Below are positions 772 to 25,278 of a stretch of DNA of 32,000 bases, piece by piece. Source of the DNA: Patescibacteria group bacterium. GTDB taxonomy: Bacteria > Patescibacteriota > Patescibacteriia > 2-01-FULL-39-33. The translations under genes and the position numbers were made by a program. The DNA is taken from NCBI GenBank assembly GCA_041649575.1, contig JBAZMW010000004.1:103131-135130 (forward strand), given 5' to 3'. The notes under the pieces are model-generated. The model worked only from the letters and a program-made list of their open reading frames with translations. It made no database searches and was not told where the DNA came from. Positions within the stretch are counted from its first letter, which is position 1, and the number at the start of each line of letters is the position of its first letter.

Positions 772-953
772 GGGCGGTTAGCTCAGTTGGTTAGAGCGCC
801 TCGTTTATTTACCCTGTTGAATAGGCACATTTAGCTCAGTTGGTTAGAGCGCCTCGTTTACACCGAGGAGGTCAGAGGTTCGAATCCTCTAATGTGCAAA
901 TAGTCCAACAGGGCGGGTCGAGGAGGTCAGAGGTTCGAATCCTCTACCACCCA
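772..953 (+). other. split tRNA-like scaffold: a 5' half (772-807) and 3' half (919-953) flank an intact tRNA-Val
   Basis: GGGCGGT + D arm + CCTCG + TTTA at 772-807. CGAGG + AGGTC + T arm + ACCACCC + A at 919-953. Acceptor strands pair at 6/7 positions. Segment 778-807 is identical to 831-860, and 919-946 is identical to 864-891. A bridging 8-bp helix forms between 812-819 and 906-913. Confidence 0.6.
825..898 (+). tRNA. tRNA-Val (anticodon TAC)
   Basis: Acceptor GCACATT/AATGTGC. D arm GCTC-AGTTGGTTA-GAGC. Anticodon arm CCTCG-TTTACAC-CGAGG. Variable loop AGGTC. T arm AGAGG-TTCGAAT-CCTCT. Discriminator A. Confidence 0.92.
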
Positions 954-1021
954 ATAGTTAACAGGGCAGGTTGAGGGGTTGTGCGTATCAGTGTAAACTT
1001 TAAACAAGTAAAATAATAAAA

Positions 1022-3742: not shown

Positions 3743-3817
3743 GAATTTAATTGAAATAACTTTTTTAATTTTATTTCAAGATGAAAAATCTATTTAATGG
3801 AAGGGGGTGATTCTCAA

Positions 3818-3868
3818 ATGGCAAAAAAGAAGGCAAAAAAGAAAGTTGCAAAAAAGAAAAAGAGATAA
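3818..3868 (+). CDS. 16-aa polylysine micro-ORF (MAKKKAKKKVAKKKKR)
   Basis: ATG at 3818 is preceded by GGAAGGGGGTGA (SD, about 8 nt). Stop TAA at 3866-3868. It lies between the promoter at 3714-3742 and the long terminator hairpin at 3885-3949. Too short for the ORF track. Confidence 0.4.
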   Translation: MAKKKAKKKVAKKKKR

Positions 3869-3884
3869 AAGTTTTCTCAAGCGC

Positions 3885-3968
3885 AAAATCCCCGTCTGCC
3901 CGTTTTGGTTCTTAAGGTCAGTTGAAGCGAGGCGAGCAGAGGGGATTTTGTGTTTTTGTTTTTATTTT
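3885..3968. terminator. long imperfect hairpin with T-tract; terminator for the micro-ORF transcript and possibly bidirectional for the convergent endoQ-like gene
   Basis: AAAATCCCCGTCTGCC... (3885-3902) pairs with ...GGCGAGCAGAGGGGATTTT (3928-3949), followed by TTTTGTGTTTTTGTTTTTATTTTTTT. Confidence 0.65.
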
Positions 3969-3969
3969 T

Positions 3970-5214
3970 TTAGAGCAACTTTTTTTGAACAGTTTTTACG
4001 GCAGCGGTCTTGATGGCTATTTGGCCGTAGATACCGTCGTAGCCGGGAGTGATTTCGACTCGGCCGAGTCGGACGCTGATAATTCTTTCGGCGATCTCCG
4101 GCCGGGCGATTTTTTTTAACTGCTCTTCGGTTAAGTCGATCAGAATTTCGAATTCACAATATTTTTTGATCAGATTAAAATATTCGGTTTGGACTTTTTT
4201 TGAATTTTTGCCAACCCCGAAGCTGTCGGCGATAATTTCTTGTAACGGTATTAGACTTTTGTAGGGAATATTTTTGGGAGAGTCGCTGTTTTTTTGATCG
4301 GCCAGCTCGTTAACTCGGTGAAGCACCCCTAAGGTCAGGGGTTTTTTACAAAGAGGACAGAGGTTGTTATTTTTTTTGCTTACTGCCGGGCTGGAGAGGT
4401 AGCGGCAAGCGGCGTGGCCGTCGAAATGATATTTGCCTTCTTCGGGAAAAAATTCAATAGTGTAGAGGAATTTGTTTTTATCTTTCTCTTTGATGAGGCG
4501 GCTAATTTCCTGGTAGCTCAATTGGCCGTCAGTTATTTCAAACACATTGGCCTCGCGGCCAAGATTGGCTGGCGAATGGGCATCGGAATTGGAGAGCAAG
4601 GTAATTCTATCCAGGGCCGATAATTGCCAATTCATTTTTGGATCGGAAGACAAGCCGGTTTCAATGGCGTGGATATAAGGAGTGATTTCTTCGAAGCATT
4701 CAGCCAGAGAATCAAAACCAGACTTGGAACCAAAAACAGCAAACCAAGGAGTCCAGGCATGAGCGGGAACAACCAAACTCTGTTGGTTGATGTTTAAAAT
4801 AATTTTAGCCAGCTCTTTGGCCGACAGGCCAATAATCGGCCGGCCGTCGGATTTAATATTAAAGCCCCGTTTTTCAAAGTCGGCAATAATTTTTTCAACG
4901 GTCGTGATATCGGGAACCAAAAGGCAGACATGGATTCTTCTGGTTTTGCCGCCCTGCGAGTAGATACAGCTGATTTCCGTACCCAAGACAAATCTGACAA
5001 GACTGTCGCTGTCTTTTAGACGATAAAGCCCCGGCTCGGCTTCGATCAGTTTGTCTTTTATTTCTTTGAACCACTTGGGATGAGTGAAATCTCCGGTGCT
5101 GACAATCTTTATGCCCTTATATTGGCACCAAGAGTCAATATTTTCCAAGGTCAAGTCACGCGAGCAACCTCGGGAATAGGCGGAATGGATATGTAAGTCG
5201 GCAATGACGCGCAT
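3970..5214 (-). CDS. endonuclease Q-like PHP-domain protein (TIGR00375-type)
   Basis: 414 aa. It has N-terminal MRVIADLHIHSAYSRG (PHP metal site), STGDFTHPKW, VPAHAWTPW, ETGLSSD, SNSDAHSPANLGRE and a Zn-finger-like CPLCKKPLTLGVLHRVNELAD. The C-terminal ...ITPGYDGIYGQI is colinear with my recollection of Pyrococcus/Bacillus EndoQ. Confidence 0.75.
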   Translation of the reverse strand: MRVIADLHIHSAYSRGCSRDLTLENIDSWCQYKGIKIVSTGDFTHPKWFKEIKDKLIEAEPGLYRLKDSDSLVRFVLGTEISCIYSQGGKTRRIHVCLLVPDITTVEKIIADFEKRGFNIKSDGRPIIGLSAKELAKIILNINQQSLVVPAHAWTPWFAVFGSKSGFDSLAECFEEITPYIHAIETGLSSDPKMNWQLSALDRITLLSNSDAHSPANLGREANVFEITDGQLSYQEISRLIKEKDKNKFLYTIEFFPEEGKYHFDGHAACRYLSSPAVSKKNNNLCPLCKKPLTLGVLHRVNELADQKNSDSPKNIPYKSLIPLQEIIADSFGVGKNSKKVQTEYFNLIKKYCEFEILIDLTEEQLKKIARPEIAERIISVRLGRVEITPGYDGIYGQIAIKTAAVKTVQKKLL

Positions 5215-6305: not shown

Positions 6306-6422
6306 CAGGGTCCGGGCGCTGACCTACTTTCCCCATTGAAGAGTATCATCGGCTCAGGAGGGCTTAACTACTGAGTTCGGGATGGGATCAGGTGTGACCC
6401 CTCTGATAGAAGCACCCAGACT
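6306..6422 (-). rRNA. rrf: 5S ribosomal RNA
   Basis: The reverse complement reads ...TCTGGGTGCTTCTATCAGAGGGGTCACACCTGATCCCATCCCGAACTCAGTAGTTAAGCCCTCCTGAGCCGATGATACT...GGGAAAGTAGGTCAGCGCCCGGACC, which matches the 5S consensus. Ends are approximate. Confidence 0.9.
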
Positions 6423-6473
6423 CTGGATTCAAAAATTTTTTGATAAGCAATAATCGTAATCACAATTCTTGCG

Positions 6474-9597
<3,124 letters not shown>

Positions 9598-9962
9598 TCA
9601 CAAGAATTTCAATTACGATTGGAATTCTTGCTCGACTAATTGCTTATCTTTCTACTTCTTTTTTGAGAATAATTGAGAATATTTAATTGTCAAAGTTCTC
9701 TTTTTCATCTTTTTTTCCTTTTAGCGTCCAGAGTGAGGACAACAAATCTTTTTATTGGCCGGCTTTGGGCGTTAAAAAAACCGCCTTGCTCCAAGCGGTG
9801 TTTCTAGCAGCGCAAAAAATGCCCGTTAGCTTGGAGAATGATTAGTGAAATAGTTGATGACTCTCATAAAGCGATGTTAACTAGTTTAAACTAATTGTTG
9901 TTTTTTGTCCAGGCTTTATTTTTTGAATAAGCTGTGGATAATCTATAATTGTTATTACTTTA

Positions 9963-19182: not shown

Positions 19183-19254
19183 GTCCTCGTAGTTCAGTGG
19201 ATAGAACAAGGGACTCCTAAGCCCTAGACACAGGTTCGATTCCTGTCGAGGACA
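19183..19254 (+). tRNA. tRNA-Arg (anticodon CCT)
   Basis: Acceptor GTCCTCG/CGAGGAC. D arm GTTC-AGTGGATA-GAAC. Anticodon loop CTCCTAA, with an A:G mismatch at the stem closing pair. T arm ACAGG-TTCGATT-CCTGT. Discriminator A. Confidence 0.8.
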
Positions 19255-19308
19255 TAAAAGAAAAATAGAAAATTAATCGGCGGGGTGAGATTCCTGTCGA
19301 GGACATAA
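19238..19308 (+). repeat. 21-bp direct repeat of the tRNA-Arg 3' end (att-like)
   Basis: GATTCCTGTCGAGGACATAAA occurs at 19238-19258 (T loop through the acceptor 3' strand plus 4 nt) and again at 19288-19308. Confidence 0.8.
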
Positions 19309-25015: not shown

Positions 25016-25096
25016 GTATTCGGTGGTTTGGCGCGCAGTCAAACCACCGGTAAATAGATATTAAAGTAATTAATTATAATTCGGGCCTTTAGCTTC

Positions 25097-25125
25097 CGCC
25101 TTGGCTCGTCTTGCTCACCAAGGCG
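25097..25125 (+). other. hairpin whose arms equal the acceptor-stem strands of tRNA-Leu(TAG)
   Basis: CGCCTTGG (25097-25104) / CCAAGGCG (25118-25125). GCCTTGG and CCAAGGC are exactly the 5' and 3' acceptor strands of the tRNA at 11196-11282. Confidence 0.5.
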
Positions 25126-25126
25126 A

Positions 25127-25278
25127 GACAGACAGTTGGCTAGAGGAATCGCCCCACACCTTTTGGGCCCTTAGCTCATCTGGTAGAGCGCATCCATGGC
25201 ATGGATGAGGTGACCGGTTCGATCCCGGTAGGGTCCAAAAGGTGTGGGGAGGTCAAGGGTTGAAATCCCTTAATGTCA
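25127..25278 (+). other. degenerate tRNA-Val-like scaffold enclosing tRNA-Ala(GGC)
   Basis: The 5' side CAGTTGGCTAGAG (25133-25145) matches the tRNA-Val D loop at 12/13 positions. The 3' side GGAGGTCAAGGGTTGAAATCCCTTAATGTCA (25248-25278) lies within a tract (25246-25283) that aligns to tRNA-Val 865-903 at about 30/39 positions, with compensatory T-stem changes. A 13-bp helix (25152-25164 with 25237-25249) holds the inner tRNA. Confidence 0.5.
25165..25237 (+). tRNA. tRNA-Ala (anticodon GGC)
   Basis: Acceptor GGGCCCT/AGGGTCC (G3:U70). D arm GCTC-ATCTGGTA-GAGC. Anticodon arm CATCC-ATGGCAT-GGATG. T arm ACCGG-TTCGATC-CCGGT. No encoded CCA. Confidence 0.9.

Follow-up and report, generated by a model that had tools for sequence, protein, structure and literature searches.

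How does a complete transfer RNA (tRNA) gene come to lie between the two halves of another gene for the same tRNA? The question is raised by a 32,000-nucleotide (nt) stretch of DNA from a Patescibacteria group bacterium (assembly GCA_041649575.1, contig JBAZMW010000004.1, positions 103,131 to 135,130; hereafter the window), in which an intact tRNA-Val(UAC) gene is nested inside a broken tRNA-Val gene. From comparisons with related genomes and metagenomic contigs (given L numbers below), we consider it probable that the resident tRNA-Val(UAC) gene was split in its anticodon loop by a mobile cassette of ~110-130 nt carrying a replacement tRNA-Val, and that the outer halves are its relics. As read from these comparisons, the loci record repeated insertion of cassettes, their movement between unrelated genomes and the decay of the displaced halves, and nesting by the same kind of element extends to tRNAs for Phe, Leu, Ala and Pro, where the site of entry is a D, anticodon or T loop. 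A full-text literature search returned no description of nested tRNA genes in bacteria of the Candidate Phyla Radiation (CPR).

Anatomy of the nested tRNA-Val locus

ARAGORN and Rfam both call a single tRNA within positions 760-990, a tRNA-Val(UAC) at 825-898 (76 bits) that is predicted to be the functional copy. An earlier note on this DNA, made from its letters alone, had proposed running these programs here; only the inner tRNA-Val is called, and ARAGORN in intron mode likewise does not call the outer gene at 760-990. The order is nested (outer 5' half, intact tRNA-Val(UAC), outer 3' half), and the parts are as follows.

772-807, + strand: outer (displaced, resident-type) tRNA-Val 5' half, with acceptor strand GGGCGGT (772-778), D arm, anticodon-stem strand CCTCG (799-803) and TTTA (804-807); 30/30 match to 831-860, and a complete tRNA-Val in silico with 919-953 plus CAC
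808-824, + strand: putative cassette left arm, with tail TTTA (808-811), helix 5' strand CCCTGTTG (812-819) and spacer AATAG (820-824); junction motif and helix covariation
825-898, + strand: inner intact tRNA-Val(UAC), acceptor GCACATT/AATGTGC, the putative cassette cargo; ARAGORN, Rfam 76 bits, 0 stem mismatches
899-918, + strand: putative cassette right arm, with spacer AATAGTC (899-905), helix 3' strand CAACAGGG (906-913) and tail CGGGT (914-918)
919-953, + strand: outer tRNA-Val 3' half, with anticodon-stem strand CGAGG, variable (V) loop, T arm, ACCACCC (946-952) and A953; 28/28 match to 864-891
954-985, + strand: putative remains of an earlier, outermost layer, with the right arm repeated (ATAGTTAACAGGG CAGGT) and then a decayed 3'-half start (TGAGGGGTTGTGCG); alignment to 900-930

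The 30-mer at 778-807 is identical to 831-860 (30/30) and the 28-mer at 864-891 to 919-946 (28/28), the inner and outer bodies being identical at 58/58 nt; by an arithmetic estimate, chance would produce an exact 30-mer repeat in 32 kb with an expectation of ~4e-10. The outer acceptor strands, GGGCGGT and ACCACCC, pair at 6/7 positions, with one C-A mismatch and A953 as discriminator. Inner and outer acceptor stems differ at 9/14 positions with full compensation, and the anticodon and T stems are identical. The two arms, 812-819 and 906-913, are exact complements, and 74 of the 111 nt of the insert are tRNA. Beyond the outer 3' half, 954-985 aligns to 900-930 through ATAGT..AACAGGGC.GGT.GAGG and decays further on; the 5' partner of this layer is no longer recognisable. 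All of this bears out the earlier note, which had reported the two identities, the nested order, the outer acceptor pairing, the 8-bp helix and a third copy of the trailer.

When 808-918 is deleted in silico and CAC is added back, ARAGORN calls a complete tRNA-Val, and the minimum free energy (MFE) fold of 772-953 (182 nt) taken as RNA is a nested double cloverleaf (-67.6 kcal/mol, z = -3.7).

Recurrence in relatives and metagenomes

The same anatomy and junctions (..CTCG TTTA^TTCA CCCC.. and ..GGGG CAGGC^CGAG.., the caret marking the junction) are found in L003 and L077, and variants of the nested anatomy in L022, L039 and L068. A scan of metagenomes with the left-junction pattern returned 46 contigs, nearly all with the full nested architecture, namely an outer 5' half, ..CTCG TTTA^TTCA-CCC helix, a complete tRNA-Val(UAC), helix GGG-CAAGC^CGAG.. 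and an outer 3' half. We parsed 31 distinct nested loci. The inner tRNA is intact in 31/31, being Val(UAC) in 30 and Ala(UGC) in one (L082), and in 21/31 a tRNA-Val can be called from the outer halves once the insert is taken out in silico. Insert length is uniform (~110-130 nt) across dozens of loci. The nesting is neither chance nor an assembly artefact. Viral contigs gave 0 matches to the junction pattern and 2 chance matches, in coding DNA, to a right-junction pattern; thus, these sequences give no sign that phages carry the cassette.

Several of these loci show unusual repeat structures. In L084 (2140-2480), a 55-nt unit made of 5' half and left arm stands four times in identical tandem copies upstream of an intact tRNA-Val that is followed by a single right arm and 3' half, which points to tandem amplification or an assembly artefact. 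L023 has a run of 100 Ns at 3940-4039 inside a tRNA-Val gene, between D loop and T loop, that looks like a scaffold gap due to the repeats at such loci; L023 had been a candidate for a genome lacking an intact tRNA-Val and was rejected as uninformative because the gap falls in that gene. L104 and L119 are the same genome (100% identity over 6.7 kb) and differ at the nested tRNA-Val: in L104 the inner 5' part is fused to the outer 3' half, and the acceptor strands of the resulting chimeric tRNA are mismatched. The population may truly contain this recombinational deletion, or the variant may be an artefact of collapsed repeats.

A covarying helix and conserved junctions

We assessed the flanking helix in an alignment of 25 distinct junction-plus-helix sequences, with 500 shuffles and controls in which the partner strand was slid. 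Paired cells make up 95.3% of the alignment, both sides have changed in 8/11 helix pairs, and none of the 500 shuffles reached the observed paired cells, double-change cells, pair types or covariation score (0/500 each). With the partner strand slid, pairing falls to 32-55%. By this comparison, which the earlier note had proposed for 812-819/906-913, the flanking helix is real and strongly covarying. The motif TTTATTYACCC is conserved at the left junction of the junction-matched contigs, and GGG-CAAGC/CAGGC is conserved at the right junction although it lay outside the search pattern. The tails of the window are slightly different, with TTTA on the left (TTCA in most relatives) and CGGGT on the right (CAAGC or CAGGC in relatives). 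The earlier note had also offered 911-953 as an internally deleted tRNA copy; this parse is not supported, as the homologous stretch in 24 other loci is the end of the helix plus the CAAGC tail and contains no acceptor strand.

Complementary arms of 8-14 bp occur in all loci and have no coding capacity, as in miniature inverted-repeat transposable elements (MITEs) and palindromic insertion elements. A common form can be written as 5'-CCCC, helix, cargo, helix, GGGG, plus a four-base tail (CAAG, TGAA, TAAA or TGAG). The junctions CTCGTTTA^TTYACCC and GGGCAAGC^CGAG have no direct repeat in common, hence no integrase-type core, and no target-site duplication is consistent across sites, since a possible 2-nt CA at the Val junctions fails at D-loop and T-loop junctions.

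The helix was also broken in silico. In the window the inner cloverleaf became 317-fold less probable (~600-fold when the cloverleaf was drawn by hand), and a compensatory change restored it. Across 31 loci the same break caused a drop of >10-fold in 10, had little or no effect in 14 and had the opposite effect in 7. The helix as a general folding insulator was therefore not upheld across the loci and is kept only as a weak idea. The "processing scaffold" of the earlier note fares similarly: the helix does keep the inner fold correct in the window in silico, the effect is not general, and a weak form of the idea is possible.

Movement of the module between genomes

Direct contig-to-contig BLAST, which proved clearer than all-pairs cassette-versus-outer identity (noisy owing to hairpin inserts), revealed a common stretch of 163 nt at 98% identity between L088 and L089 (plus one 55-nt stretch), 151 nt at 92% between L086 and L121, and 147 nt at 90% between L098 and L115. 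Over several kb these pairs otherwise have only shorter or weak tRNA-type matches. The conserved stretch includes the non-tRNA arms and spacers, and L086 and L121 have unrelated outer T arms. A module of ~150 nt that is 90-98% identical between contigs sharing essentially no other DNA implies that it moves horizontally, and its position in the tRNA-Val gene of otherwise unalignable contigs amounts to horizontal transfer into a homologous site.

The divergence between nested genes is consistent with this. Averaged over 17 loci, acceptor divergence is 0.40 between an inner tRNA and its own outer gene and 0.36 between an inner tRNA and the tRNA-Val of other loci; corresponding values are 0.30 and 0.29-0.39 for the anticodon stem, and 0.29 and 0.27-0.38 for the T stem. 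An inner gene is thus roughly as far from its own outer as from other loci, which suggests that it is usually foreign to the locus. Inner and outer are as divergent as tRNAs of different loci in 15/17 cases, the window being an exception. At L082, where the cargo is tRNA-Ala(UGC), the outer gene combines an alanine-type acceptor (G3-U70) and D arm with a valine-type anticodon stem and the standard TTTATTCA/CAAGA junction; this combination suggests a mobile unit able to take in the anticodon-stem strands and a cargo that is exchangeable.

Displaced halves as probable relics

If the cargo replaces the function of the gene it interrupts, the split outer halves (772-807 and 919-953 in the window) would be relics. 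Displaced halves indeed accumulate mismatches, GC-rich palindromic inserts and truncations. Inner tRNAs have 1 non-pair among 651 stem pairs and callable outers 20 among 441 (Fisher p = 1.3e-7); a few of these belong to outers with an already damaged 5' part. Another 10/31 outers are uncallable after insert removal, on account of GC-rich hairpins (CCYGCC..GGCRGG) in D, V or T loops or of truncation. Such hairpins are present in outer halves and never in inner tRNAs, and 783 kb with 385 tRNAs held no tRNA interrupted by a hairpin only and lacking an intact same-anticodon copy nearby. Layers are stacked in L077, L084, L114, L115, L126 and the window (954-985), and decay in the window has gone furthest in the outermost layer.

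Two further kinds of sequence were observed in displaced fragments. One is a structured element of ~70-110 nt (consensus CGGG-TTGG-AAGCGA..hairpins..CCAA-CCC-AGGA) that interrupts displaced Val, Leu and Gly fragments at the T loop, the D loop or the V region and is without an Rfam match at E <= 0.1. The other, CCTGCCTGCCGGCAGGCAGG, is a nearly perfect palindrome of 20 nt that CPR genomes only distantly related to each other share in their displaced tRNA fragments, often at the same D-arm position, which suggests a putatively active, site-selective palindromic insertion element.

L001 ~3800-3880 (minus strand); L002 2790-2900 and 3600-3700; L003 3541-3650; L006 3945-4030; L008 4195-4290; L013 3585-3690: structured element of ~70-110 nt
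L022 3400-3560 and 4296-4314; L006 3414-3452; also L116, L126 and L013: palindrome CCTGCCTGCCGGCAGGCAGG

Other isoacceptors and other sites in the window

Nesting extends beyond tRNA-Val. A tRNA-Phe lies inside tRNA-Phe, entering at the D loop in L086 and immediately ahead of the anticodon loop in L095, tRNA-Leu(UAA) lies inside Leu(UAA) (L122), and tRNA-Ala(UGC) inside Ala through the T loop (L106); in L086 and L089 the same arms and tail flank tRNA-Pro, and in the tRNA-Val(GAC) of L119 the helix takes the place of the outer anticodon arm. The nesting always pairs like with like (Val; Phe in L086 and L095; Leu-UAA in L122; Ala in L106 and L082; Pro in L086 and L089; Val-GAC in L119), and wherever the identity of the outer gene can be read, the anticodon of the cargo is that of the host gene.

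Related structures occur elsewhere in the window.

25083-25151, + strand: site 2, outer 5' fragment, with acceptor-like GGGCCTT, TAGCT, a 38-nt GC hairpin insert (~25095-25132), CAGTTGGCTAGAG and GAATCG
25152-25249, + strand: site 2, putative cassette, with CCCCACACCTTTT (25152-25164), tRNA-Ala(GGC) (25165-25237) and AAAAGGTGTGGGG (25237-25249); ARAGORN, Rfam
25250-25278, + strand: site 2, outer 3' fragment, with V loop AGGTC, degenerate T arm AAGGG TTGAAAT CCCTT and acceptor-like AATGTCA
19255-19305, + strand: third site, remnant after tRNA-Arg(CCT) (19183-19254), with a spacer, the arm ..CGGCGGGG, tail TGAG and a 16-nt copy
9266-9371, - strand: 105-nt insertion in a terminal hairpin of the 23S rRNA (6472-9598); Rfam large-subunit alignment, 105 nt in place of 4

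At site 2, a perfect 13-bp helix (25152-25164/25237-25249) is stacked directly on the tRNA-Ala acceptor, within a 20-nt inverted repeat that is 95% complementary. The layout, with a helix replacing the anticodon arm, is that of the L119 tRNA-Val(GAC), the Val 5' remnant of L005 has an insert of the same position and sequence type as the 38-nt hairpin, and AATGTCA resembles the Val 3' end AATGTGCA. The outer acceptor strands match each other poorly. The earlier note had rightly pointed to this arrangement (about 25127-25278) as an argument against chance, and the site is real, though less tidy than the Val locus. The third site had been overlooked there: 19290-19305 is an exact 16-nt copy of the 3' end of tRNA-Arg(CCT), starting in its T loop, and the GGGG+TGAG/TAAA T-loop junction recurs in L089 (Pro) and L106 (Ala). 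The tRNA-Arg site is a third putative tRNA-replacement scar in the window, of T-loop type. Within the 23S insertion, TTTATTTACCCCGTTAAAT..ATTTAACCGGGGTTCG belongs to the junction motif and helix family of the tRNA-Val cassettes, with a match to the left arms of L077 and L087 at 19/20 positions.

Gene order and tRNA-Val types among relatives

The L19 protein of the window is closest to those of Candidatus Buchananbacteria and other Patescibacteria metagenome-assembled genomes (identity <=74%), and bacterial 23S and 5S rRNA genes are present (Rfam); by these markers the window is from a Buchananbacteria-like CPR bacterium. The 23S and 5S genes are adjacent at 6311-9598 on the minus strand and no 16S gene lies in the 32 kb, so that the rRNA operon appears unlinked. 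A conserved cluster in L001-L018 comprises rplS, tRNA-Leu(GAG), tRNA-Val(UAC), a small membrane open reading frame (ORF) and tRNA-Ala(UGC).

637-721, + strand: tRNA-Leu(GAG), upstream neighbour in the conserved cluster; ARAGORN, Rfam, synteny with L001-L018

In "clean" relatives (L009, L011, L012, L016, L017) tRNA-Val begins 1-12 nt past tRNA-Leu with no fragments between, and in other relatives the gap is 80-600 nt and holds tRNA-Val fragments. Relatives have two tRNA-Val acceptor types. GCACGCT/AGCGTGC is the commoner, the GCAC type being commonest in Buchananbacteria relatives, and GGGxxxT/AxxxCCC belongs to the working tRNA-Val of L003, L005 and L007. The window has both, an intact GCAC type inside a broken GGG type.

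Candidate nucleases and a proposed mechanism

An ORF of the GIY-YIG nuclease family (PF01541, E = 6.8e-13) lies inside the nested tRNA-Val of L002, and in L006 and L022 the order is tRNA-Leu 5' fragment, GIY-YIG ORF, intact tRNA-Leu. Of 10 distinct GIY-YIG homologues, each ~80 aa, 8 are <=225 nt from a tRNA gene and 6 are within 50 nt. A search for such homologues gave no match in the window, where the cassette itself contains no ORF and the 20 ORFs scanned include no recombinase.

L002 3934-4182; L006 3489-3731; L021 3731-3943; L022 3585-3809; L023 3492-3725; L028 737-949; L062 3971-4156; L121 5046-5276: tRNA-adjacent GIY-YIG genes

We propose that the cassette would consist of two complementary arms (5' ..TTYA-CCC-helix and helix-GGG-YRRR 3') with a complete tRNA-Val between them and no protein-coding gene. 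Insertion would take place at the DNA level through an enzyme that acts in trans and cleaves tRNA genes that are intact, or the loops of hairpins, and the broken gene would be repaired from a cassette-bearing copy in a homing-like manner. The small GIY-YIG nucleases beside the tRNA genes of relatives are the best candidates for this enzyme. Insertion would be tolerated because the cargo supplies the very tRNA that is destroyed, in a genome with probably one gene per tRNA. The identical bodies and different acceptors (9/14) of the window could reflect later gene conversion between layers that was unable to reach the terminal 7 nt. We had considered acceptor stems as an immunity determinant and rejected the idea, since an identical body with a different acceptor, as seen at the window Val and the Phe loci L086 and L095, is not general in the comparison of 17 loci. 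The helix may be kept because the element needs a hairpin to move, or as a clamp for the inner tRNA fold in a repetitive transcript.

Alternative explanations

Several findings weigh against replacement by a mobile cassette. Lacking a target-site duplication or shared junction core, the element fits no known chemistry of transposition or site-specific recombination, and no nuclease, integrase or transposase lies near the three window sites (20 ORFs of the first 28 kb scanned). The metagenome sample was found by one left-junction pattern and is biased toward one junction sequence. Among the outers, 21/31 are still competent to form a full cloverleaf, 11 of those without any stem mismatch, which implies either that insertions are recent or that the match between the halves is under some selection. 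On the side unconstrained by the search, conservation of the internal-loop motif TTTATTCA/CAAGC would also suit an RNA motif recognised by a protein, and the identical inner and outer bodies of the window and the entirely identical layers of L084 would also fit local duplication.

Might the interruption be dealt with in RNA rather than in DNA? The outer gene would then be a functional tRNA or tRNA-like scaffold with a tRNA as its "intron", RNase P and a 3' nuclease freeing the inner tRNA and the outer halves being ligated or serving in two pieces. The perfect nested double cloverleaf of the MFE fold, the covarying helix and conserved junction motif, the 21/31 cloverleaf-competent outers, insertion points in D, anticodon, V and T loops (positions that appear aware of RNA structure) and a related hairpin within a presumably functional 23S rRNA gene all speak for it, as does a passage in PMC9297842, citing Brown 2015, which reports that CPR rRNA insertions are absent from transcripts. 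The outer gene, however, retains only TTTA (at most plus one C) of its anticodon loop, no two-cut splice regenerates a loop of 7 nt, a tRNA is called only with CAC added by hand, and ARAGORN intron mode is silent. No bulge-helix-bulge (BHB) motif occurs in the 25 aligned junctions, and the 8-nt/5-nt internal loop TTTATTCA/CAAGC cannot be drawn as one. The self-splicing core of group I introns comprises P3-P9 and is typically >200 nt; at the locus Rfam finds no such core and only tRNA even at E <= 10, and at permissive thresholds the window and the loci of 11 relatives match only tRNA and rRNA, with no family for the arms, the GC hairpins or the ~110-nt structured insert. No splicing endonuclease or RNA ligase is among the 20 window ORFs scanned, and we know of no protein-based tRNA splicing system in bacteria. 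The outers also have significantly more stem mismatches, a third are wrecked and the outermost layers decay; that the payload is always the host isoacceptor and that no hairpin-only interrupted tRNA stands alone are as expected if interruption kills the gene. In split or permuted tRNA genes, halves transcribed apart or in permuted order are joined to make a functional tRNA; those seen here are collinear, flank an intact gene of the same anticodon and decay. RNA-level splicing of the outer gene is thus unlikely, and we give little weight to an RNA function for the outer gene as a whole. Still less should be staked on a specific tRNA-within-tRNA transcript, in which RNase P and a 3' nuclease excise the inner tRNA and the outer halves, clamped by the helix and TTTATTCA/CAAGC, are ligated or persist as a two-piece RNA; if true, it would mean a protein-dependent tRNA splicing or split-tRNA system in Bacteria, with GC hairpins in tRNA fragments and 23S rRNA removed by the same machinery, and RNA-level excision of this kind would be a first for bacteria. 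The "intron-like element carrying a tRNA" of the earlier note is accordingly a fair description of the DNA anatomy and not of RNA splicing, for which the BHB motif, the group I core and a splice to a 7-nt loop are missing and whose outers decay; the evidence instead supports another of its suggestions, the scar of a tRNA-targeting insertion.

The remaining explanations retain DNA as the level of change and differ in its agent. Replication slippage, template switching or unequal recombination among tandem tRNA-Val copies, with no mobile element, would account for the 58/58 nt identity of the window bodies and for L084, whose 55-nt 5' unit is repeated four times unchanged and whose inner and outer copies do not differ, and L104/L119 show that repeats do recombine within one population. 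Tandem duplication followed by deletion predicts identical rather than complementary side spacers, though, and the window acceptors differ at 9/14 positions with full compensation, the same arms and junction motif occur in otherwise unrelated contigs, and inner and outer diverge at the between-locus level in 15/17 loci, so a purely local origin is improbable. We regard it as more doubtful still that the locus is the remnant of a conventional integrase-type element, later almost wholly deleted. Duplicated 3' portions starting in the anticodon or T loop, such as the 16-nt repeat at the window tRNA-Arg, are a classic signature of attachment (att) sites. Here, however, both halves are duplicated, the inner tRNA comes with an acceptor stem whose strands match each other, no identical core is common to the two junctions, no integrase is found among the 20 window ORFs scanned, and a uniform insert of ~110-130 nt in dozens of loci is unlike random deletion remnants. 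Misassembly, the chimera considered in the earlier note, is very improbable as a general explanation: assemblers do have trouble at such loci (the 100-N gap in the tRNA-Val of L023), and the four-unit count of L084 and the L104 variant could be artefacts, but 31 distinct loci from many projects and assemblers carry lineage-specific, mutually compensating sequences.

Comparison with known systems

In the cases of Allomyces macrogynus mitochondrial atp6 and the phage T4 Seg enzymes, a free-standing gene for a GIY-YIG homing endonuclease takes the place of a portion of a host gene, and the resident portion persists downstream as a relic. The proposed cassette resembles these systems in that its insertion brings a functional copy of what it disrupts while the resident fragment decays, and GIY-YIG genes lie in or beside structures of this kind in L002, L006 and L022. 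It departs from them in that the window cassettes have no endonuclease gene, a whole tRNA is carried in the loop of the old gene and both old halves are kept; the hairpin arms and YRRR tail have no counterpart in GIY-YIG homing. SegB, a phage T4 Seg enzyme in a tRNA cluster, appears in PMC13096335. Integrating elements and plasmids that target tRNA genes leave tRNA fragments (PMC9897764), and a Caldiarchaeum tRNA-Thr is disrupted by a recombinase-bearing element (PMC3293823). The target, insertion in the anticodon or T loop and a displaced fragment beside an intact gene are common to such elements and the cassette. However, tRNA-targeting integrative elements are kilobases long, encode a recombinase, restore the gene by a partial copy and have an identical core repeat, whereas the cassette is ~120 nt, carries a complete tRNA and has no core.

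Some archaeal introns encode another RNA. Disrupted archaeal tRNAs include BHB introns at many positions, transposing introns, and split or tri-split tRNAs joined by complementary leaders (PMC10714607, PMC4390854). Interruptions in several loops, a helix that juxtaposes the halves and RNA inside RNA are points of likeness. In contrast, the present host is bacterial and its loci lack a BHB motif; taking out the insert does not give back an anticodon loop, and the outer halves decay, all of which points to DNA-level replacement rather than splicing. Rickettsia palindromic elements and yeast mitochondrial GC clusters are small GC-rich palindromic mobile elements that insert in genes, RNA genes included. 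Likewise, GC-clamped hairpins are scattered here through an AT-rich genome, inside tRNA fragments and 23S rRNA, with no transposase gene; neither of those two kinds of element is known to have a tRNA gene in its loop or to target a gene for the same isoacceptor. None of these analogues combines a whole-tRNA cargo, hairpin arms, insertion in the loop of the same gene and stacking.

Implications for CPR genomes

The mobile elements so far known to make use of tRNA genes are large, and with them it is a partial copy that restores the gene. The element proposed here would be barely larger than its cargo and would insert in a loop of the gene it replaces, with the result that genes are stacked like Russian dolls. 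In practical terms, tRNA annotation and assembly break at nested loci. If the cassette reading is true, it would explain the tRNA fragments and odd spacers of CPR genomes as well as the very different tRNA-Val acceptor stems among related bacteria, and it would provide a route for the horizontal exchange of an essential single-copy tRNA gene. The tRNA-adjacent GIY-YIG nucleases and the GC palindromes of tRNA and rRNA genes would then be parts of one selfish-element system.

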